From: Pristiophorus japonicus
Lineage: Eukaryota
Assembly: GCF_044704955.1 (NCBI RefSeq)
Contig: NW_027252026.1
Coordinates: forward strand, 124,001-188,000
Reading direction: 5' to 3'
DNA: 64,000 nt
Shown here: piece by piece, positions 4,279 to 59,459 of the stretch
Layout: each line of letters starts with the position of its first letter
Position numbering within the stretch: position 1 is the stretch's first letter
Position numbers and translations under genes: made by a program
Notes under the pieces: generated by a model
Seen by the model: the letters and a program-made list of their open reading frames with translations, nothing else
Databases searched by the model: none
Told to the model about the DNA's origin: nothing

Positions 4279-4623
4279 GTGCAGTGGCGGAACTAGTACT
4301 GGTTCAGTCTCCGACAGTCTATAGCGTGAGAGAGCGTCAGACTGTGAGCTTACGCTGCACCATGAAGAAAGACAACGTCAGGCAAGTGGATGTTCACTGG
4401 TCCCAACAGCTCCCTGGTACACACAAGGAGATGATACTTCATTACACAAATAATACATTAAAAAAGTAGCGGGGTTTTGCTGACCATTTTCAGTCTTCCA
4501 GGGATGTCACCAGTATTAGCTTCATTCTGACCATCACAGGCGTGCAGCACAGAAACACCGCTGCCTATATCTGCAGTGTGTGGAGCCGTATCGATGGAGC
4601 AGGAACCCAGCTGAATGTCATCG
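4279..4623 (+). pseudogene. Germline-joined VJ-type Ig V-set exon V1 (phase 1-1) with in-frame stop
   Basis: Acceptor TTCCCAG|GT, donor G|GTATGT; GAVAELVLVQSP...VSLRCTM...VHWSQQLPG...KK*RGFADHF...FILTITGVQHRNTAAYICSVWSRIDGAGTQLNVI; TAG at 4467-4469; no RSS heptamer after the second Cys. Confidence 0.9.
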
Positions 4624-12017: not shown

Positions 12018-12343
12018 GAGTAGTTATCCAGTCTCCGGGCCTGGAACGTGTCACAGAGGGTCACACGGCGCGGTTACAGTGCACCATGCGGCACTCCAGA
12101 GTGAGTGACACCGAAGTCCACTGGTACCGGCAACTACCGGGGCAAGATATGGAGTGGGTTTTAACACATGAGGCAAGTGGCAGCACACGAGGGAGCCCAG
12201 GTTCCACTGACCGTCTCCAGCCTTCCAGAGACACCTCCAATAACAGCTTCATTCTGACAGTCACAAATGTGCAGCCCAGTGACACTGCCGCCTATTACTG
12301 TAAAGTGTGGGGAGATATCAGTGGGAGCAGCTCAATGTAACCA
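12018..12343 (+). pseudogene. Germline-joined VJ-type Ig V-set exon V2 with a 7-bp frameshifting deletion in the G strand
   Basis: Acceptor CCCCTTAAAG|GA, donor A|GTAAGT; VVIQSPGLERVTEGHTARLQCTM...VHWYRQLPG...DTAAYYCKVWGDISGS; lacks GGAACCC relative to V3, giving TAA at 12338-12340. Confidence 0.92.
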
Positions 12344-12485
12344 GTAAGTACAGTTCACATTGTAATAATATTATATCTGCGTCTGACATCACCTTGTGGA
12401 TCAGGGCTGGTAAAGGTCCAATATTTGATGGCAAATACCTTATTCTGTTAGTCCAGTCCCTTACATGTCCCTCTCACTTTCACAG

Positions 12486-12620
12486 ATCCTAACGTGCAAA
12501 TGGATGAAGACCTGAGGATTGTCTGGATCAGTGTGGGGGCTGTGCTGGCACTTACTCTCATTGCTGGAGTTGCTCTTGTCTTCTGTATCAGACAGGCATG
12601 GTTCGGGAAACTGCAATCCT
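12486..12620 (+). CDS. Transmembrane exon of the + strand IgSF receptor (phase 1-1)
   Basis: Acceptor CTCTCACTTTCACAG, donor T|GTACGT; 135 nt open; PNVQMDEDLR-IVWISVGAVLALTLIAGVALVFCI-RQAWFGKLQS with an uncharged 24-aa hydrophobic span. Confidence 0.88.
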
Positions 12621-12691
12621 GTACGTTTAAATAAATATTTCACGGTAACTACCACATCTGGATCAGCTGCCCATAGTCATTGAAGGGATAA

Positions 12692-12915
12692 GAACAGAAA
12701 ATACTGGAAATACTCTGCAGATCAGCAGCAACTGTGCAGCGAGAAACAGAGTTAACGTTTCAGGATGATGACCTTTTGTCAGAACTGGAAGGGGTTAGAG
12801 ATGGACAGTTTTTAAGCAAATACACAGCCAGGGAAAGATGGGCATTCATAGGTGCTGTGAGTATTTCCAGCGTTTTCTGTTTTTATTTCAGATTTCCAGC
12901 ATGCTTAGTATTTTT
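12692..12915. mobile_element. Penelope-like element terminal remnant with a degenerate hammerhead-like core
   Basis: Inverted AACAGAAAATACTGGAAATACTC / GAGTATTTCCAGCGTTTTCTGTT; minus strand CTGACAAAAGGTCATCATCCTGAAAC. Confidence 0.55.
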
Positions 12916-13140
12916 CTATTGTTTGAGTCATTGAAAGGTGAGAGTATTAGTGAATTCAAGAGGGAGCTGAGTAGATTCTTTTGGTGAAAGAAGTGTTTTG
13001 GGCTATGGACGACAGTACAGTTTGGGTTTTTGTGAACTTTGGGACCACCCAATGGACTGCAATGGCCTTTCCCCAACCTCCATGTTTGCGTGTTCCTATC
13101 TACACTCGGTGTTGGTGACATTCTGTGATTTCCTTTACAG

Positions 13141-13214
13141 CCCCGTCTGTCCACACTGCTACTACATTGCCAGCACGCGATTATAAAAATACCTCTCTTC
13201 CCGGACGCTCACAA
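13141..13214 (+). CDS. Cytoplasmic exon 1 (phase 1-0) with YKN motif
   Basis: Acceptor TTTCCTTTACAG, donor CAA|GTGAGT; open in the phase required by the TM exon: SPSVHTATTLPARDYKNTSLPGRSQ. Confidence 0.8.
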
Positions 13215-13879
13215 GTGAGTCGAGTTGGTTGGCCCAGTGCCAGCCTTTTGTTAATGTTCTGGAGTATTTAAAGCATTAGGGCCTAGAAATTCGATGACTT
13301 TGAATCCATTTTACAGGCATAAAACGGGCGCCAAAATGTCCAGTGTAGTGGTCAAGCAGCACGTGTACATTCCACGTTGGGTGTGCGCCGCCCACCATAT
13401 TGGTATAGGCATCAAAAGAGGCATCCAAGGCCCACGTCTGAAACAGCCATTAGTCCTTTGCATTTGCAAATCAGGGGTCGAGTGCCTGGTTGATGCTTCC
13501 TTTACCAAACTGGTTTGCCTGAACACAGCTGGCACCAGGCCGGCTGCATTCAAGAAAACCAGGTCTTCCTGCAGCCTAACCAGCGCCCCTCAATGGAGCC
13601 GCTGGAGGCCACCAGCAAAAGGGCAAGTTTAAAATAAATACTTACATGAATGTGGAGCCGACAGGTGCAGGAGTGCCCCCCCACCCACCTGTCCAGATTC
13701 CCCCCTCTCCCGGGCACATTCCCTTCTCCCGAGACCTATACCTGATGCAGTAACCACAAATTCAAATACTCTTCAACGCCGTGCTGCCTGGGGAGATCCG
13801 AGCAGGTGTCTGCAGCTCGTCGGTTTGGTGTAAATGAGAAGCCCGATATTGGGTGAGCTTTGGGCCTGTCCGTTCCAGC

Positions 13880-14100
13880 ACAGAGATCGTTCTCTAGACT
13901 TGAATGTGGAGGCTCAGTCGTTGAGTATGTTCAAGACAGAGATCGATAGATTTTTGGATATTAAGGCAATCGAGGGATATGGGGATAGTGCGGGAAAGTG
14001 GAGTCGAGGTCGAAGATCAGCAATGATCTTACTGAATGGCGGAGCAGGCTCGAGGGGTCAAATGGCCAACTCCTGTACCTAATTCTTATGTTCTTATGTT
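13880..14100 (+). mobile_element. CR1 LINE 3' end
   Basis: FKTEIDRFLDIKAIEGYG; 3' UTR and TTCTTATGTTCTTATG tail. Confidence 0.8.
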
Positions 14101-14243
14101 GAACACACGACCTTCTGATTCAGAGATGAGAGTGCTACCAACTGAGCCAAGACAGACACCTTAGATTGTTGAGAGATACTAAAGTACCAAATATGCTGTT
14201 GCCTAAAGTGACCTATCTGGATTTCTTGCTTTCCTTTTTTCAG

Positions 14244-14606
14244 TTTTCCCAGAAGCCCAAGGAGTTGAGATCTGCCAACAGAGAAGCATGTACCTCCAGA
14301 AAATACCAAACTAGACGCTTCATTTCAGGACAAAGCAAGACTGAACAAGTGCTAGAGAAACACCAGCATTGCCGAGAACTGAAGGATCAGCAACTTCAAC
14401 CAACACAATGGACTCACCAGCATCAGTCGGCACCAAGAGGTCACCAGCACCAATCATCACTGAGGCGCTTTTTACCCTTTAAGAATTTAGCACCACCAAC
14501 CAGCAACAAGACTTTATTGGCACCGACTCGTTCTGAACTCTATGCAAACCAAAGACAGATTAAACCTCATCTCTCCAAGGAGGTAACTATCAGGCCGGTA
14601 ACATAG
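14244..14606 (+). CDS. Terminal cytoplasmic exon (phase 0 start) with YAN motif
   Basis: Strong acceptor TTGCTTTCCTTTTTTCAG; phase 0 matches the previous exon and the open frame of ORF 14166-14606: FSQKPKEL...SELYANQRQI...RPVT*. Confidence 0.75.
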   Translation, partial: FSQKPKELRSANREACTSRKYQTRRFISGQSKTEQVLEKHQHCRELKDQQLQPTQWTHQHQSAPRGHQHQSSLRRFLPFKNLAPPTSNKTLLAPTRSELYANQRQIKPHLSKEVTIRPVT

Positions 14607-16070: not shown

Positions 16071-16819
16071 GTCTTTATGGGGGCAACATCAGCAGCTATC
16101 ACAACTGCCCTTGGACAGGGTTTATTTTGAACAGGTAGAACACATGCTGTTTTAAGTGAAACAAGCAGAATATATGTGCTTTGTAGGTGAAAAAGCAGAA
16201 TCCATTTTAAAAGCCTCTCTCACTCACCTGACAGACTGGGGCTCAGCTGCAGGCTTATTACACCCTGCATCGGGCACCAAGCTCTACAGCATCTGCTATA
16301 TTCGCAGTGACGTTCAGGTCCAAGGATCAGGTGCATGTGAGCCACCTCAGGCTTCAGAGGAGTGATGGAGCAGATATTGCCATCCCACCTATGGCCCTCG
16401 GAGAAAGCTGCCTGTACCAATCTGTAGCCATGTGGAGAAGTAGCACGGCAAATATCAGAGAGAGTTACTCTCTTCATTTCAGAAGCCTGTCTCACAGATT
16501 AGATCACACCACCCATTGCAGAGTTCTCAGATGAGACAGACAAGCTACATGGACTCAGTTAATGGATTCAGTCTGATTCCAAACATTTGTTTTAAATTAC
16601 AGAAATCAAGTGATCTTCAAGCGGATTCCAACTCGACATACATGGTAACTATATCAAATATAGTAATTCAAACTAAGTTAGTGATTGATGCCAATATAGC
16701 AATTCATGTCAATATAATGAGTTAAGCCAAATCAAACCAACCCTTCAGAATAAAATGTTAATGGATTGCATCTACCTTTTGTTTCAGAATTTTGATCCAG
16801 TCTTAAGTCAGTACAAAAA

Positions 16820-17300
16820 TAACCCCGTCGACAATCAAACCTGGAAAAGCTGTTGGTCCAGATGGTGTTTATCCCGAATTCTTAAAAGCACTGGGACCCA
16901 AAGCGAAGAGATGGTTGATCTCCTTCTTCTCTGAGATACTGGCAACCGGTAAAATTCCACCGGTTTGGAGGGAGACTAAATTAATTGCCCTCCTGAAGCA
17001 GGGGAAGAACACTTGTGAAGCCTCCAGCTACTGCCCAATCTCCTTCCTCTGTACTAGTTATAAAGTGCTGGAGAGGCTGTCTATCACCGAAGTGACCCTT
17101 ACCAGTTGTTTACAGAGAATGGAGGCTTACTTCCACCGATGGCAACTTCGGACAAATCAAGAGACTGACATCTCGACATTCCACCTCAACACCCATCAAG
17201 TCTCCTTTTGCAGCACTGAGGTAAACCATGCCCAAAACCCTCCTATTTAGGAGTCAAGCTTGATCGCATTCGGTCAGTAATTACATAAATAAATAAAATC
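16820..17300 (+). mobile_element. Deleted non-LTR retrotransposon RT fragment, Vingi/ingi-like
   Basis: KPGKAVGPDGVYPEFLKALGPKAKRWL...WRETKLIALLKQGK...YCPISFLCTSYKVLERL; (TAAA)n tail near 17286. Confidence 0.6.
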
Positions 17301-27605: not shown

Positions 27606-27784
27606 GTTGTATACACGCGCTGTCTCCTGTTACCGTCCATGGTCCACAGGTGGCTCAATGTCACTTCACTTCCCCACATTGTTGTCACAGCTCGAATACA
27701 AGCGATCATATTGGGATGTGGGTTGAAAGGATTGGCCCCACGTTCTCAGCCAGGACTGTGAGCCTGTGTGCTGCAGGAGGGAAG

Positions 27785-30195: not shown

Positions 30196-32775
30196 GGGGC
30201 CGAAATTGCCCCTTCCGATAAAGCCTCTTGCTGCCTGAAAGCAGCGGCTATGGGGCGGCGCGGAATGGCCGGGGACTCACGGCGGACTGGCCGATGTTCG
30301 TGGCATTGCCCTCAAAGGTTTTTGCTGCATTGTGAAGATCCGCCCCGCTCCAGCAGATGCGTCGTTAACGATGTCATCCGAGCGCGCACCGCATCGGACC
30401 CGCCCCGGAAGGTAAATTCATTCAAAAAGTCTTCCAGCCGCCTGTCGATGCCAACGACAGTTTTTTGGGTCGGTACACAGTGCTAGCTCAAGACCACCAG
30501 CAGCCTTTAAAAGCGTGTTGCATGTAGCAGCATTCTGCACTGACCCTCCCACTCCAGATATTGGGCGAAATGGAGAGAAGGCAGGGTGCACAGGAGGCAG
30601 ATGCTTGCCAGCAGCAGGCTGCAGAGGGTGAGGAGCAGCAAGAGCATGAAGGAGAAGGCAATGAGGCAGCTGCCATCGGAAGACGTGAACATAGACATGG
30701 CGGGGAGAAGGCCCTATCGTCCAAGGGTGTACAGACAGCAGTTCTCATACATGGACCTGACGGATGACCAGTGTCTCCGGAGACTTCGATTCCTGTGCAA
30801 TCTCCTGCAGCCAGACCTCCAGCCTCGAACAAAGTTGAGGACAGTGCTGACCGTTGCATCCAAGGTGACCATAGCACTCCATTTCTATGCGACTTGATCA
30901 TTCCAAGCTGCTACAGTAGACATCTCGAACATTTCACATTTCACCGCGCGTGGCTCCATCATTAAGTGACAGATGCTCTCTATAAGAGAAGGAGGGACTA
31001 GTTATCCTTCCCGATGAGCAGGGACAAACAGTTGGTGTGGAGACCGGATTCGGGAGGTGTGTGGGCTTCCCCAGGGTTCAGGGTGACATTGACTGCACCC
31101 ACGTCGCAATGAGGGCGACACAGAACAATCCCGAGATCTTCAGAAACTGCAAGGGATTCCACTCCCTCAATGTGCAGCTGGTGTGTGACACCCCACCACA
31201 AAATCATGGCAGCTGATGCCCGGTATCCTGGCAGCAGCCTCGTTGCTTTCATCCAGCGCCAGAGCGGTGCGCCTGACGTGTTTGTTGGACCAAGCCAAGG
31301 TTGCGGCTGGGTCCTTGGAGACAAGGGCTACCCACTGTGCACTTGGCTGCTGACTCCCCTTCACAACCCCAGGACTGCTGTGCAGCAAGCCGGCAATGAC
31401 TCTCATTCAGCCACCAGCTGCTTCATTGAGCAGTGCATCAGAATCCTTAAACAGAGGTTCCGTTGCCTGGATCACTCTTCCAGTACTCGCCTGAGCGGGT
31501 CTCCCTATTCGTGGTCGTCTGATGCATGCTTCATAACATGGCAATCATGAGGGCACAACCATTGGAGGACGAGGCACCAGTATCAGCTGAGGAGGAGGAC
31601 CAGGAGGAGGAGGACCAGGAGGAGGAGGCACAGGACCAGTACCAGGAGGAGTAGGAGGTCCAGGGTGAGGAGGAGGCACAGGAGCACGATGCACAGAAGG
31701 AGGAGGAGGCGCAGGAGGAGGACCAGGATGCGGGTCGCTGGCCAAGCTGGAGGCAGCGTCGCCATCCAAACCCTGCAAGGGAAGTGCAAAACCATCTCAT
31801 TGTTGCTCGTTTCTGATGAGTTCATGCGCACTTCACCCTTCACCTGTGCATCTCCATGGCCAACCCAATGAGCCCTTTCACACATCATTGCCCACAGTGA
31901 AATGAGACACCTGCACAGATATTGAAACACAAAATAAAGATTTATTACACAAGAAAGAATGGTGCAAAAAAACATACACCATCAATTATCATCCTTGTGC
32001 ATTTGCTTATTCTTACACAAACCTATTCTTGAACTATGCCCCAGTGTCTCGCCTGTGGCTGCATCATGCGTCTGGGAAGGCTGCTGTGTTTCAGGTGTAG
32101 AAGCTGCAGATGTCCTTCTAGGACGCCCTCGACCAGCTCTTTCCCTGGAAGTGCCAGCTGCAGACTGCACCGCATCCTCCTCGGTGCATTCAGTCAGGAT
32201 TGGCTGGGGCGATTCCATGCTTGATGGCAATGGCGGACTGAGAGGTCTCAGCTCAGGACTACTGAGAAAGCACATCAGAATCCTGGTCCGAGGAGCCTGC
32301 TCCACTCCCCCGGGGCAGCACCTCACCACCCCCACCAATCAGCTGGAGCACAGGTCAGTGGTGTGGCACGACACCGGAAGTTCCCCGTGGACCGTGGTGG
32401 ACCCAGCCGCGATGGCAACAGTCAGATCTCGCTTGGCATCCAGCTGAGACTGCATGAGAGCAGATACAGTCTCGATGCCACCAGAGACTACAGCAGTAAG
32501 ATGCTCCGTAAGACAGCAGCATGAGCCTGGAGCAGCTGAGGGAGATTTAAACATCAGCGTCTCCGGGACAACGGAGGCAGCGCGAGCCTGGTGCACCTGT
32601 TCGGCATGTGGCGTGGGTAATGGTGGCGGCCACTCTGACTTCTCCCACGATCCTTTGAGAAGCTAAAATGGAGCAGGACCCCAGCGTGTTTCATCCCATT
32701 CCCTCATCACACCTCAGATCTCCCACCACCTCTCCTGAAGGCACTGCTCAGTGCCGAGCTTACAGCTCACACCCC
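30196..32775 (+). mobile_element. PIF/Harbinger DNA transposon remnant: degenerate transposase (+, about 30697-31550) and probable convergent Myb/SANT-like gene remnant (-)
   Basis: GGGGCCGAAATTGCCCC terminus; peptides KVTIALHFYAT, FPRVQGDIDCTHV, KGFHSLNVQLVCD, ARYPGS, LGDKGYP, ILKQRFRCLD. Confidence 0.85.
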
Positions 32776-39720: not shown

Positions 39721-40164
39721 TACGTAGCTTTCCCTTGATTATTATGGTCTGTTTTCCCAGAATTAATGTGACATAGCTCTTGTTGGAAAACATCAGAGCC
39801 AATAATTTGCTTAACCCTTGAAACCAATGGAAAATGTTGAATTAGAAAATGAAGTGTGCTGGCTACTTTGAACCTGGTTACAATACTCAGTGTGAACAAA
39901 GGAGAGGATTTGTGTGTGTGCGGCTGTGGGTGTTGATGATTTAGTAAAAGCTGTTCATCACCACACAACATTCAATCCATCACCGTACTGGGCTACTGAT
40001 GGCCCGTTACCACACTGGGCCCATTGCTCTCAGTCTATTCCAGGCAGTGTTGCTGCTATGGATCCATTTTAGGTGAAGGTTTCCCACAGTTTCACCATTT
40101 ATACAAAAAGTGACAGATATCACACGCTTTGCCTCTACCCTTGCCAAGTGTGAGAGAAACATAC

Positions 40165-40207
40165 CTTTAAGCTCACTGTATATGGACTGATCCGATTCCT
40201 TCAATGC
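40165..40207 (-). CDS. Small cytoplasmic exon encoding an ITIM (SIYSEL), phase 0-1
   Basis: Acceptor CTCTGTTCCCTGTTAG, donor AAG|GTATGT; ALKESDQSIYSELK; same strand as, and downstream of, V3. Confidence 0.72.
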
Positions 40208-41175: not shown

Positions 41176-41905
41176 CTATTCAAGGAGTATCGCATTCAGC
41201 CGTTCGCACTCTCTTTCCTGATCCATATTGTTGTTATTGTCGAGTAGTTCTTTACTTCGTTGGATCATAACTCGGGAGCCCTTGACCACAAGAGGGTTTG
41301 CTAACCTTGCCATCATTACTTTACAATAAAGGTTAAGGCAACCAACAATTAGATAGGATCTCCAAGATCCATCTGATAGCCAATCAAACCAGCTAGATCC
41401 TTCTGCTGGTGTGGATAACTTCTTCACCTTCCTTCTTATGTGATCAGCGAGATTGGTTATGTTTTCTGAACTATCAAGAATGTAAATGCAACATTCAGAC
41501 CCTATCAGGGCACACGTTCCCCCTTTCTCAGCTAACAGGTAATCGAGGGCCATTCGGTTTTGTAATGCTACGGTCCTTATTGCTACCATTTCAGCTGTGA
41601 TGCCCTCCAGAGCTTCAGCAGTATTGTATTGGCCCCCCTCCTCTCGTGATAGTCTGGCTCTGAATCCATCTGACAGTCTCAGTTAGGGTCAGTGGAACGG
41701 GGTGCAAAGGAATTCCCCCTTTGGAATGTATAGGGATATGTGAACACACCCAACATCTAGAAAAGTTCCCATTTTGCGCATAAACATAAGACATGTACAA
41801 AAAGGTGTCTACATGGAGCTCTCGTCTCTGTCTCCCCTCCCATGCGCCGAAACTGTCATATATCAACACTATTATGCAGACTGTGGCAAAGAGATACAGT
41901 TTCAT
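41176..41905 (-). pseudogene. env: ERV-A env remnant with internal deletions
   Basis: Signal peptide, CWVC, ISD LQNRMALDYLLAEKGGTC and CX6CC; most of SU missing relative to ERV-B. Confidence 0.9.
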
Positions 41906-41999
41906 CTTATGGCTCAGGATTCAGATAAATAGTCCAATTATTTTGCTAATTAAAAGAGTTTGGTTCTCCCGTCTCTCTTCTTAGGTCACCGTCGGTGTA

Positions 42000-44468
42000 G
42001 CTGGCTGTCTATCACTGTGGGTAAAAGTTCAAACTGGTCCACGTTCCAATTAGGATGCCAATGGCCTTGTTCAGCTATGGAGAAGAGTAAGTCTGGAACA
42101 GAAACAGGAGTTAGAATAACCAGTAAAATAGGTTCGTTAGAGGGTGGTGAGCTTGCAGTGGTGCAGGTGAACCCAGGCACTTTTTCCCTCAACCTTGGCT
42201 GCAGTGGGGGTAGTGAGTAACACCTGAAAAGGCCCCTCCCATTGTGGCTCTAATCCCTTCCGAATCCATACTTCCCTGGTGCCACGAGGGACAATTCGGG
42301 TAAAACTGGGAGGTCGAGGTGAGCATCTTGAACCTGGTTGTGAGCTAGTCGCAGAGCCTGAGTCAGAGAAAGAACATAGGTGGTCATCAGTTGAGCTGAG
42401 ATACCATATATAGGAACAATTTCCCTCATTAACACCTTAACAACAGTTTGAGTCTTATTGTCCAGGGTAGGGTAGGCTTCAATCCATCTGCTAAACACAT
42501 CTACTATTACTAACACATATTTGTAACACTGAACTTTTTGCAACTCAATGTAGTCCAACTGAAATGTCTCAAAGGGACCTTCGGGTAGGGGCGTTTTACC
42601 CCAATCACAGGGAACTCCCTTCCCTGGATTATGATGCTGGCAAACCAGGCAATGACTACTGATGTTCTGGGTGAGCGCCTGGAGTCTAGGGTGCCACCAA
42701 GTAGCCAAAAGTGTATCACTCGTGGTCCTTGCTCCACAATGAGTAGCAAAATGCATACATTCAATAACCCATAGAGCCAACTCGTCAGACATGCAAGTCT
42801 GTTCCGCGGGAGTGGTCCAGAGTTTAGAAACATTGTCATAAGTACATGCATAATATTTCCACAACAGTTTATCTTTTTCAGGAGCGTCCTCCTGTGCTTT
42901 TATAACATCTTGGATGGTTGGCATTGATTTTTCCGAGGCTAACTTATCCTTCGCAGGATTTTTAGTCTGACTCATCATTCTGGGCACTACCATCTGTTGG
43001 TCACGAGAGGCCTGTTTAGCCTCTTTGTCAGCACAGTGGTTCCCTATATCAACCGGGGATTTTCCGGTGGTGTGGGCGGTACATTTGACAATGGCAATGT
43101 GCTTGGGGAGCATGAGGGCTTGCAACAAATCAGATACTAGTTGCTTATTTTTCCATAATTGTCCGAAATCATGGGCCACCCCAAAGGCATACCTAGAATC
43201 GGTATAGATATTGACTTCGAGGTCTTTGGCCAAGATACAGGCTCGGGTGAGGGTGAATAGTTCAGCTTGTTGGGCAGAATAGGCGGTTTCAAAAACGGCA
43301 GATTCCAAGACCTGATTCTCCTGGTTTACTATAGCGTATCCTGAGATTCGTGTACCTTCTGGATTAATAGAAGAACTTCCGTCAACATACATAATACAGT
43401 CTGGATCTTAAATTGGTACATCAACTAAATCTTCCCTGACTGATGTGGCCTCTTGAATTAAAGATAAACAATCATTCCTCATCTTGGGGTGGCTCAGTAA
43501 GAAAACAGGCCGGATTAATTGCAGTACAGTGCCGAAAGGTCAGTTTAGGATTGCCTGTGATTTCAGTGGGTACTGTCGGATAGAGGGCCAGTCCACATTG
43601 CCCTGCACTGGGATCTCAATTGGATCAATGGGAGTATAACCCACTTGGGAGGGGTCCTCTTCCCACACATGAGAATCCACATAGTCAGGTATGTCAGAGC
43701 CAGTATGATGCTGCAGAGTCGTTAAGACCTTCTCGGGGTCCCCGTGGAATTGGACTGTTCGGCCATGTTTTACAATTTGCACATCCCGGCTGGTAGGGTC
43801 AGCCTCGTCTATAGCCTGGCACACCATAACTCCCAAATCTTTAGCGTGGTGGGGAGGTAATACTTCACGAGTAATATGTGGTGCCACCGTTGGGGGCTGT
43901 CCATTTCCACAAAATCTGCCTTCCCTTCCGGTCCAGTCACTCTAGCCCTTAATAGAATTTCCTTCACTTCCCCTTCGTGATCCTGATAAAAGTTCTGCAG
44001 GTCCTGATTCTTTCCACTGAGATCGTATGCTAGGGTCACGTGATAGGGTGCCTGCGGCAGGTCCAGAGACCACCACTGAGGGGTTCTAGTGGTATAATAC
44101 TGCCGCTTAAGGGTTTCTTGTTTTACAATAATCCCATCATCTCCACACTCCAAATGCAACTGGAATTTGCAGAGGAGGTCTCTAGCCATCAAGTTACAGT
44201 CCAGATTGGTTGTGATAACAAATCGATGTTCCACCGATTCTTCCTGGTAACCCATTTTAACCGGTTCTGACACCAGGAATGTAGAGACTTGTCCCAGGAA
44301 TCCTGACAGTCCCTGTGTTTCAGTGAAGGCGGGGAGTTTCAGCTTTGATTGTACAGAAGACATGAAGGCTCCCGTATCTATCAAGAAGGGTTGCCACTCA
44401 TTCCGAATTTTTAACAATATCATCGGTTCGTCATCCGGGGAGGGTCCCTGCACAATCAAGCTACGTAG
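42000..44468 (-). pseudogene. pol: ERV-A pro-pol remnant: protease, 2H phosphoesterase-like insert, RT largely deleted, RNase H, integrase
   Basis: FLIDTGA; YHVTL and PHIT; IRQYPL; YVDGSS, SAQQAEL, YTDSRY; HHCC zinc finger; QLDYIE. Confidence 0.9.
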
Positions 44469-45400
44469 TCAATACGAATAATCGGGGGACGGTTGGCCAA
44501 AGGGGTTGTTCTGGGAGAAGTTAGTGTAAGATCCCCGTCCTCTCCCCCCTTGCCCCCCTCCTCTTCCTCCTTTGTGCCGACACGGGAGGGACACTCTCTA
44601 CTCCAATGTCCTTCTTGCCCACAATTAAAGCATCCATCTCGTCTTTCCCAGCCCAACCTCTTCCCATACCAGGCCGGGGACAGTAGGGCGGTCCGTAATT
44701 AGCAGGGCCCGGGCCATTTGGGTGTTTGATATAACCGTATCCCTGTTTATCCACCAACCCTGCACGCAACACTGCGGTTCCATCTGGTATCCCCTTGGGT
44801 CGGGTTTTGGTCCTTCCACCCGAGGCGGCTCTTCCTTTCTAGTCACGTATTCAGTCTTGACCCAGGTTGGGGGCGCACCTCCCCCCTCTCCTTTCTTTTC
44901 TTACCAATAATATTTAACCGCCCTTTCCATCTGGGCTTTACTGTTATCTGCCCAATTCATATTATTTGTCCGGATAGCGTGAGCAATCGAATAGGGTAGG
45001 CACTGAAGTAGGATAGCGCAGAATTGAGGAGAATCCTCTCCTGCCCTGAAGGCATTATCTCCTGATTGACTTCCGTATATTTCAATAAATCTTTCCATGA
45101 ATTCATCGGCAGTTTCTTCTCGTTTGGGTTTAGTTTCTAATACTGCGGCCATACTGATGGGCTTCTGAAGGGTCGTGGTGAGAGCATTAGTGTTTAGGCG
45201 ATCCTGGACATCGTTAGGGTGAGCAACCAACAATGCATCATGAGTAGCACGTCCTCGGTGAGTTAGAAATCGGGCTTGCTCAGTTGGGCTCAGGGTTTGC
45301 TTTACCAGGGCCACAGGTCCCTTGATTCTGCATTATATCCATGCATGTCAGGTCACTCCGTGAAATCGGAGGTCAGGGTTAAGTTGGGTTTGTGGATCCC
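44469..45400 (-). pseudogene. gag: ERV-A gag remnant (CA and NC)
   Basis: MHR-like ETKPKREETADEFMERFIEIY; zinc knuckle CFNCGQEGHWSREC; frameshifted. Confidence 0.85.
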
Positions 45401-53874: not shown

Positions 53875-55240
53875 ATGAGTCAGGCTAAAAATCCTGCAAA
53901 GGATAAGTTAGCCTCGGAAAAACCAATGCCAACCACCTAAGATGTCATTAAAGCACAGGAGGACGCTCCTGAAAAAGATAAACTGTTGTGGAAAAATGAT
54001 GGATGTACTTATGACAATGTTTCTAAACTCTGGACCACTCCCACGGAACAGACTTGCATGTCTGACGAGTTGGACCCTATGGGTTACTGAATGTATGCAT
54101 TTTGCTACTCATTGTGGAGCAAGGACAACAAGTGACACACTTTTGGCCACTTGGTGGCACCCTAGACTCCAGGAGCTGGCCCAGAACTTCAGTAGTCGCT
54201 GCCTTGTTTGCCAACAGTATAATCTGGGGAAGGGAGTCCCCTGTGATTGGGGTAAGACGCCCCTACCTGAAGGTCCCTTTGAGACATTGCAGTTGGACTA
54301 CATTGAGTTGCAAAGAGTTCAGTGTTACAAATATGTGTTAGTAATAGTAGATGTGTTTAGCAAATGGATCGAAGCCTACCCTACCCTGGACAATAAGGCT
54401 CAAACTGTTGTTAAAGTGTTAATGAGGAAATTGTTCCTAGATATGGTATCCCAGCTCGACTGAGTTCCGATAATGGCCCTCACTTTATTGGCCAAGTTAA
54501 CAAAGAATTCTGTTCCCAGATGCGCATTAACCAGCAGCTGCATTGTGCCTACCGACCCCAAGCTGCGGGATTAGTTGAACGTGCTAATCAAACTCTTAAA
54601 ACCAAGCTTGCAAAACTGGTAGCATCAACCGGATTCAATTGGCTCAAACTCCTTCCCATAGCCCTATTCCAGATCCGAACTACTCCCACCGGTAAGGCTA
54701 GAGTGACCCCCGCTGAGATCATTTATGGTAGGCCCCTTAGGACTCCCTGGAATCAGAATGTCCCCTCCACTGTCCAATTCCACCACATGACTGAGGAACT
54801 GACCACCTATGTTCTTTCTCTGACTCAGGCTCTGCGAATAGCCCACAATCAGGTTTGAGATGCTCACCTCGACCTCCCAGTTTTACCCGAATTGTCCCTC
54901 GTGGCACCAGGGAAGTATGTCCTGATTAAGAAATGGATTCGGAAGGGATTAGAACCACGATGGGGAGGAGCCTTTTCAGGTGTTACTTACTACCCCCACT
55001 GCAGCTAAGGTTGAGGGGAGAAGTGCCTGGGTTCACCTGCACCATTGCAAGCTCATCACCCTCTAACGAACCTATTTTACTGGTTATTCTAACTCCTGTT
55101 TCTGTTCCAGACTTCCTCTTCTCCATAGCTGAACAAGATCCTTCCTAGGAGCGTCCTGACTAACCGAGTGATTCTCCGAGGAGAGCAGTTTGAACTCCTA
55201 CTCGTAGTGATAGACAACCAGCTACACCGACGGTGACCTG
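53875..55240 (+). pseudogene. pol: ERV-B integrase region
   Basis: HFATH...CLVC, LQLDYIE, SSDNGPHF, YRPQAAGLVERANQTLK; frameshifted. Confidence 0.9.
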
Positions 55241-55363
55241 AGAAGAGAGGCGAGAAAACCGAACTCTTTGAATCAGCAAAATATTCGGACTATTTATCCT
55301 TGTCCATAGAGACGCTACAAGAAACATTTTGTTCCCGAGTAATTGTTAACCTAGAGCGATAAG

Positions 55364-56803
55364 ATGAAACTGTGTCTGTGTGCCACAGTCTGTATAGTAG
55401 CGTTTGTGTACGTCAGGTGCGGCACATGGGAGGGGAGACTGAAGCGAGAGCTCCATGCAAACACCTTTTTGTACATGTCTTATGTTTATGCGCGAAATGG
55501 GAACTTTTCTAGATGCTGGGTGTGCTCACATATCCCTATACATTCCAAAGGGGGAATTCCTTTGCGCCCCGTTCCACTGACCCTAACTGAGACTGTCAAG
55601 TGGCTTCTGAGCCAGACTAGCATGAGCGGAGGGGGGCCAATGCAAATACGAGAGAGGAAAGGCGGGTCAAAAGAGGGATCACAGAGATCAGGAGGCGTAT
55701 TATACCGTTACCACATGAACGACCACGGGGAGGTCACCAAGTGGGAGAGTGCTGGAGACCCCATTAGTCAGATGTCCCAGGGATGGTACCAACCAACCTA
55801 CGACTGTGGAAAGGAACCCCCATTCTTAGCTCTGACCAATACCTCGGGGATTGGGAGGTCAACCGGGAACATATGTTTAACCCGAAATGACACCAGTAGC
55901 AAGGGACATATCATAGGGTACAGCGATTGCCCACACAGTCTCAACATCACAACAGATGCACGAGTCACTATCCTCTCTCACCTTCCGAATAAAACAGGTG
56001 GAGGTCTGTGGGCCCAGTCTTGGGACCCCGACACAATATATCAGAAGGCAGCGTATAATGGCACGTATTTTGTGTGCGGGCATAGGGCATATCCCTGGTT
56101 GCCTAGGCGATGGACAGGGTCCTGCTATCTGGGATATGTGGTGCCATTTGTGCGGCAAACACGTACCCTGGCGGAAGCACATGCCTCCAGCCGACACAGG
56201 TGAGCCCTCACCCCCGCCGAAAGGTTCTTTGGGGTCATGATGTTCCCATTCGGGATAGGACGCACCATGGATGAAGTACAGAACCTAGAGAGGGTATTGG
56301 AACAGATAGCTAACTATACTGCTGAAGCTCTGGAGGACATCACGGCCGAAGTGGTAGCAATGCGGACCGTAGCGTTACAAAACCGAATGGCCCTCGATTA
56401 TCTGTTAGCTGAGAAAGGGGGAACGTGTGCCCTGATAGGATCTGAATGTTGTACTTACATTCCCGATAGTTCAGAAAACATAACCAATCTCGCGGATCAC
56501 ATAAGAAGGGAGGTAACAAAGTTATCCATGCCAGCAGGAGGATCTAGCTGGTTTGATTGGCTATTAGGTGGATCCTGGGGATCCTATCTAATGCATGGGG
56601 CAATTATTCTCATCGGAGTAATAATTACCTGTTGCTTGATTGTTGGTTGCTTTAACCTTTGTTGTAAAGTCATGATGGCAAGGTTAGCAAACCCTCTTGT
56701 GGTCACGGGCTCCCGGATTATGATCCAGCAAGCTAAAGACCTACTCGACAAGGAGGATCAGGAAAGAGAGTGTGAACGGCTGAATGCGATACTCCTAGAA
56801 TAA
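55364..56803 (+). CDS. env: ERV-B gamma-type env, in frame throughout except TGA at 56201-56203 (SU-only ORF of 279 aa)
   Basis: Signal peptide, CWVC, RHR* at the furin site, fusion peptide, ISD, CX6CC and TM helix all in one frame. Confidence 0.92.
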
Positions 56804-58784: not shown

Positions 58785-59126
58785 TGGTTACATTGAGCTG
58801 GGTTCCGCTCCCGCTGATATCGCCCCACACTTTACAGTAATAGGTGGCAGTGTCACTGGGCTGCACGTCTGTGACTGTCAGAATGAAGCTGTTATTGGAG
58901 GTGAGTCTGGAAGGCTGGAGATGGTCAGTGGAACCTGGCTCCCTCGTGTGCTGCCACTTGCCTCGTGTTAAAACCCACTCCGTATCTGGCCCCGGTAGTT
59001 GCCGGTACCAGTGGACATCGGTGTCACTCACTCTGGCGTTCCGCATGGTGCACTGTAACCGTGCCGTGTGACCCTCTGTGACACGTTCCAGGCTCGGAGA
59101 CTGGGTCAGGACAGGGACAACTGCAC
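58785..59126 (-). CDS. Germline-joined VJ-type Ig V-set exon V3 (phase 1-1), open
   Basis: Acceptor TTCCCATTAAAG|GT, donor A|GTAAAT; 342 nt; GAVVPVLTQSPSLERVTEGHTARLQCTMRNARVSDTDVHWYRQLPG...DTATYYCKVWGDISGSGTQLNVT. Confidence 0.92.
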
Positions 59127-59459
59127 CTTTAATGGGAACATATCAATAGCTTAAAAACTGGTCTGAAGGTTACAAAGTGTCCCCGGTATTTAAAGGGACA
59201 GTCCAGGCAGTACAAGTTAGACGAAGATCAAAGATTGCAATCCTGGAGCAGTGCGGTTAGTCAGTTACTGATTCCGATCCAAAATGTGGAAAACCTGTGT
59301 TGTGAACCCTGTCTTTTATTTGAACAAGTTCACCAATAGAAGAGAAGGTTCTTTTTCTTTTCATTCACCAGCTGGCGTTGGCACGGGTACAATGGGCCGA
59401 ATCAGTGTCCTTCGGTGCTGTCTGATTCTATCATGGAAACTGGTAAAGGGAGACCTGGG

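Follow-up and report, generated by a model that had tools for sequence, protein, structure and literature searches.

A 64,000-nucleotide stretch of Pristiophorus japonicus DNA, hereafter the window, carries exons for a V domain, a transmembrane (TM) segment and a cytoplasmic tail, which raises the question of whether it encodes a signalling receptor and, if so, of what kind. The initial annotation had drawn a forward-strand gene with one V exon, one TM exon and two tail exons. The exons at 12486-12620 (phase 1-1), 13141-13214 (phase 1-0) and 14244-14606 indeed have AG/GT ends, and joined they read as a single open frame. The TM exon encodes an uncharged TM with one juxtamembrane Cys and contains an in-frame ATG at 12500. 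A tail of 155 residues follows, in which DYKN and LYAN are present and ITIM and ITAM absent, as annotated; YxxM and PxxP were also looked for in this tail model, and neither was found. At least two YxN motifs appeared in 0.2% of 20,000 shuffles of the same tail, the motif having been picked after it was seen.

The exon starting at 14244 had been taken as terminal, and this part of the model did not hold. Two database gene models labelled Pristiophorus japonicus, P0104 and P0105, splice at 14582|GTAACT to 16603-16644 and 16788-16934, which makes 14244-14582 an internal second cytoplasmic exon (339 nt, phase 0-0). Reading through the donor at 14582 adds seven codons and the stop at 14604-14606. 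The third cytoplasmic exon (16603-16644; 42 nt, phase 0-0), absent from the initial annotation, has Tyr-Met at its end, and the first Asn of the last exon (16788-16934) completes a YMN built across the junction. In the orthologues the stop lies two residues past NFDP, whereas the window's last exon is instead extended by a LINE-like fragment from about 16800. Among the joints of the sequence-run contigs, mostly repeats, no exon junction was seen, and no listed run is recorded as RNA. A 411-letter contig from run X13 (kind and species unrecorded) aligns exactly on 14244-14582 with its first 339 letters and elsewhere with the remaining 72, from which we infer its continuation past 14582 into the next exon.

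Exon 14244-14582 was considered as an exonised repeat and rejected as such, its 18 strong matches all lying inside this cassette, with one weak match in addition. A lineage-specific origin was overturned by homologues in P0123, P0134, P0136 and P0138. A word-indexed search found the exon in 2 of 84 candidate proteins, and it appeared as an insertion in one alignment. Its low divergence between copy groups is not evidence of selection, because it is not bounded by the exon and runs about 800 nt into the upstream intron.

The corrected tail thus contains YKN at 13182-13190 in the first cytoplasmic exon, YAN at 14541-14549 in the second and YMN across the last junction, plus a fourth YKN in the LINE-like sequence. 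The fourth is missing from five other copies and from the orthologues. Conservation of the YxN motifs in homologues, proposed as a check in the initial annotation, was confirmed for the first three sites, since the proteins of white shark (P0123) and basking shark (P0134) retain YKN, YAN and YMN alike. In two bamboo sharks (P0136 and P0138) the second and third sites persist (YAN, YAN-FDP) and the first YxN, the Tyr of which is aligned in the orthologues, has been lost. Background identity to the orthologues is 42-56%, with 45% over the long exon and 51% over the whole TM-tail region; their structures are automatic database models, P0134 lacking a V domain and P0136 and P0138 the TM exon. The TM type recurs in seven relatives with a short tail, drawn from seven shark species, and these bear two YxN motifs, at the first and last positions. 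Within this genome, the TM exon occurs in 19 copies (the window and 18 fetched loci), a count that unmerged haplotypes may inflate, and the first motif, YKN in the window, reads YEN in 6 of them.

The extracellular part of the gene is damaged. The membrane-proximal VJ-type V exon (12018-12343; Pfam V-set E 2.7e-17) measures 326 nt, where intact paralogues have 345 nt. Seven nucleotides that the paralogues possess are deleted behind 12327, within the G strand. Its frame reaches a TAA at 12338-12340, three nucleotides ahead of the GTAAGT donor at 12344, which is now out of phase, and the V-TM join, described as phase-consistent, is frameshifted. The upstream VJ-type V exon (4279-4623; 345 nt, phase 1-1), of the same domain type as the V of the long-tail orthologue P0123, contains an in-frame TAG at 4467-4469. 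A stop is likewise found in the 43-45% matches beside other window-type copies. No leader was found on the forward strand in C1414:92,700-128,279, the 35 kb upstream, in a search that recovered both family leader types at control sites. Together, the frameshifted join, the upstream stop and the missing same-strand leader contradict a locus that makes a V-TM-tail receptor as drawn. The V-frame stop lies 593 nt ahead of the last junction, and V-containing transcripts are therefore predicted to be degraded.

A sequencing error behind the frameshift was rejected, because the 326-nt V exon, with the identical deletion, is present in 13 of the 19 copies, over nine contigs; two of the 13 have lost the donor too. 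Other frameshifts affect the V exon in 4 of the 19, and the two copies with an intact 345-nt V exon have a TGA in the upstream V. Paralogues that carry other tails also have the intact 345-nt form. Extra letters stand at 12326-12327 in contigs of runs X13, X1 and X5, seven of them in X13 and X5. At 12327 the whole depth of X13 (572) is of the undeleted form, in contigs that drop rare variants and from a run of unrecorded kind and species, and its variant letters fit copies L021-L026, not the window copy.

All 19 copies have an open TM exon and an open first tail exon. The tail exons of L023 and L031 carry frameshifts and those of L059 a stop, and in three copies extra sequence is inserted between the final two exons. 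No copy of the 19 is intact across all examined exons, and no functional long-tail gene was found in this genome; X13 nonetheless covers the TM exon and exon 14244-14582. Comparing the window copy with an intact-V copy, we counted 24 replacement changes over 675 sites and 6 silent changes over 198 (ratio ~1.2, p = 0.83), a small count that does not separate neutrality from mixed selection. Given the broken V exons, the failure to find a leader and a deletion common to 13 of the 19 tail copies, the window locus has most likely become a pseudogene.

An inverted repeat (98.8-98.9% over ~10.8 kb) has the window copy as one of its arms, and its spacer holds a leader that faces the twin copy. On C1414, C2898, C137, C2277, C3977, C284, C3920, C3833 and C9, genes with this tail usually stand head to head with an opposite-strand leader 28-52 kb off, an arrangement that, as sequence, resembles a palindromic amplicon. 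Other elements of the window include a degenerate leader-like relic (27728-27781, forward), a last exon of the ITAM-like class standing alone (40163-40207, reverse) and a second family V exon (~58785-59135, reverse), whose frame shifts over a short stretch and is then restored and whose donor, GTAAAT, is weak; the upstream V of the latter, at C1414:199,618-200,000, looks frameshifted. By eye, we also recognised two opposite-facing copies of broken retroviral-like frames (41179-45332, reverse; 53912-56200, forward) and a broken DNA-transposase-like frame (30544-32444).

To which family does the gene belong? Of 161 candidates, a search with the window V retrieved 103 proteins; those with a named source come from sharks, rays and a chimaera. 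A profile search gave 118 matches among 7,997 scored, only one of them non-chondrichthyan (P0131, from a bony fish). The window V is 90% identical to domain 2 of P0061 and 56-80% identical to shark, ray and chimaera members, and the window's TM and tail exons are homologous to those of other members. The family's single-exon VJ domain ends in C-x-x-W-x(3)-G-x-G-T-x-L-x-V; the window copy has this domain type, its own G strand having been lost by the deletion, and lacks the intact leader-V-TM frame of functional members. In a domain tree of 43 rows, from 15 proteins and 9 genomic domains, the family had support of 86/73 on long branches that do not resolve its origin, and the P0131 domains fell outside it, also on long branches (27% identity). 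Sequence searches of the PDB brought up nothing other than multi-domain antibody constructs. We found no description of a chondrichthyan multi-VJ receptor family in the literature covered, which includes few subscription journals; RefSeq names the members "uncharacterized", "IGSF3-like" or "SIRP-like". By sequence, the gene is one of a family of multi-VJ receptors in cartilaginous fishes that do not rearrange, the other members of which carry predicted ITIM/ITSM or ITAM-like tails on homologous exons.

Eighty of the 103 proteins bear a TM, and in none is the TM core charged. Nineteen tails have an ITAM-like pair and 38 a loose ITSM-type pattern, a few having both, and six have at least two YxN motifs without ITAM, one of these (P0065) being an ITAM-class variant. 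The ITAM-like and YxN tails share one exon layout: the TM exon is followed by an exon with YxN and then by a short one that closes with Tyr-Met, and the last exon supplies either the rest of the ITAM (YM|AL) or the Asn (YM|N). The genome matches include 4 ITAM-class and 18 ITIM-class TM exons, and the family clusters on C9 plus unplaced contigs. The multi-YxN tail would thus form a third tail class in a little-studied family, and this conserved class is what appears to be new here.

Other members show features of their own. At G000:C9:4,433,000-4,442,200 (reverse strand; L077/L078), a family V runs intronless into an open frame of ~3,000 residues, made of an 11-residue repeat that has many N-x-T/S sites and is reminiscent of the J-like end of the V domain. 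Comparable stalks occur in P0078 (skate, 1,999 residues, with a TM) and P0101 (bamboo shark). ITIM-class members with multi-VJ ectodomains (P0016, P0049, P0023 and others) have tails ending in Y-A-D-I-Q-F ... T-E-Y-A-x-I, much like the two tail motifs of PD-1 described in PMC12151841.

We consider it likely that the window holds a duplicated copy that probably makes no surface receptor, since a stop and a frameshift disrupt its V exons, and that the intact shark orthologues are Grb2-docking receptors acting through two or three tail tyrosine motifs. The intact gene would be laid out as leader, one or more V domains, TM and four tail exons. Binding of a ligand by the germline VJ domain would cluster the receptor, Src/Syk-type kinases would phosphorylate the YxN tyrosines, and the phosphorylated tails may then recruit Grb2/Gads at several sites at once, as on LAT/NTAL. 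YxN is treated as a Grb2/Gads site in PMC11599192 and PMC3342071. No DAP12 or FcR-gamma partner would be needed, and the motif around the junction tyrosine would depend on the last exon, YM|N in this gene and YM|AL in the ITAM-like class. The original proposal of a co-stimulatory or adaptor-type receptor signalling without DAP12/FcR-gamma is thus upheld in its motif argument at the level of the family, with YxN conserved and the TM uncharged in 80 of 80. It does not hold for this disabled locus, and the co-stimulatory sign is not established, because Grb2-docking adaptors can dampen signals too.

Indeed, the YxN tail of intact orthologues might sequester Grb2, or recruit a phosphatase through it, and so dampen rather than co-stimulate. 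The 155-residue tail model, free of YxxM, ITAM and PxxP, would be compatible with such a role, and the YxN adaptor NTAL is called a negative regulator in the title of PMC2211846; however, the family already has dedicated ITIM/ITSM members, and YxN tails of the CD28H type are taken as positive in PMC11599192, and we regard dampening as rather unlikely. The window copy itself might still work through a cryptic donor at 12320, giving a V without its G strand, or secrete a lone truncated V domain. The V-TM join from 12320 is open, in phase and retains both cysteines, and the V frame is open over 106 codons. Yet this donor matches only 4 of 9 consensus letters, where the true donor matches 7, the G strand belongs to the core of V domains, and either product would face an upstream V with a stop and no leader found. 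We hold both to be very improbable.

Broken-V copies could also have been retained as a V-less transmembrane adaptor of the LAT/NTAL kind, starting at the TM-exon Met or after skipping of both V exons. The database models P0104 and P0134 have no V, though they are possibly just incomplete. A Met stands 6-9 residues ahead of the TM in the window and in P0123, P0134, P0067, P0070, P0085, P0088 and P0126, but the TM-exon ATG has a weak start context, with C at -3. The TM and first tail exons, open in every copy and covered by X13, point the same way; against them stand the disrupted tail exons and insertions described above, replacement changes that are not depleted, a single Cys without CxxC and a same-strand leader that was not found. 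We therefore judge this retention quite unlikely. Equally speculative is a broader version, in which sharks fuse antigen-receptor-like VJ domains to three interchangeable signalling tails, encoded by homologous exons and including a LAT-like multi-Grb2 scaffold, and in which the scaffold gene has in this lineage lost its V domains, been amplified ~19-fold and become a free transmembrane adaptor. If true, the V-less scaffold would show a LAT-type adaptor arising from a receptor.

With this locus read as a probably dead duplicate of a predicted Grb2-docking receptor gene, the tail class matters more than the copy itself, as it adds Grb2 docking as a third predicted output beside ITIM/ITSM and ITAM-like signalling. 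All three tail classes of this undescribed shark family do without a charged TM. The change of last exon, which would give one tyrosine a new meaning, suggests a simple route for motif evolution. The evolution of receptor signalling motifs thereby becomes testable in named intact orthologues, white shark P0123 and the bamboo shark P0136 locus.

By the features tested, the gene is not a member of CD28, LAT, NKp30, SIRP, CD300, NITR or UrIg. It shares a single-exon VJ domain and a split leader with UrIg, UrIg2, PRARP and NKp30, as described in PMC12227049 and PMC10751288. It differs from UrIg, PRARP and SIRP in that no C1-set match followed the V in 10 of 10 proteins scanned (precomputed annotation places PF07654 on 3 of the 103 family hits), and from UrIg, UrIg2, PRARP and NKp30 in its family's tyrosine-motif tails and lack of a charged TM residue. 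NKp30/NCR3 has a charged TM residue, in contrast to 0 of 80 family TM cores. MHC class II alpha, the sole marker used, gave hits on C6 and C19, and IgH V hits lay on C23, compared with C9 and unplaced contigs for the family. On C23 (G000), a different single-exon VJ domain (L099:4830-5189, reverse; 39%) was among the best non-family hits, on a contig that carries IgH V genes, and a pattern search for a C-like exon in ~34 kb downstream gave no match. A germline-joined heavy-chain VDJ exon was seen on G000:C1467 (L100:4787-5140, forward).

CD300, pIgR and MDIR have a second disulfide in the V domain, whereas 226 of 252 matched family domains contain only two Cys (25 contain three and one contains four). 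NITRs have non-rearranging VJ-type domains, a multigene cluster and both activating and inhibitory tails, features that the shark family shares. They combine a V with a cysteine-rich I domain, however, and in the shark family all domains are V-set, with no such I domain; P0131, which by eye we take to be a teleost NITR, is only 27% identical.

The likeness to CD28 and CD28H lies in the V-TM-tail layout, the GxG of the G strand and the YxN tail motif, including a YMN, as set out in PMC11599192. The gene differs from CD28 in its CDR3 loop, which reads KVWGDI and lacks the PPP/EIP motif that the same paper gives as a feature, in a TM exon that has no Tyr and hence no YxxxxT motif, in its YMN, which is followed by F and so forms no YxxM, and in its multigene cluster, with usually two or more V domains per member. 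With LAT, NTAL and LAX it shares a single uncharged TM, an enzyme-free tail and several YxN Grb2 sites after acidic residues, as these adaptors are portrayed in PMC3342071. It has one juxtamembrane Cys and no CxxC, unlike LAT/NTAL; LAX likewise lacks CxxC (PMC3342071). No sequence similarity to LAT, NTAL or LAX was found, P0104 giving seven hits against 1.84 billion representatives, six of them in its own family. Further, the orthologues P0123 and P0136 carry V domains in place of an ectodomain of a few residues, the V-less P0104 and P0134 being possibly incomplete, and the one or two V domains present make the long-tail orthologues receptors. Where other multi-VJ members have ITIM/ITSM or ITAM-like tails, the window copy, itself disabled, has a multi-YxN tail, and by analogy an intact gene of this class would work as a receptor fitted with a tail of the LAT/NTAL type, or as a CD28H that has additional sites.
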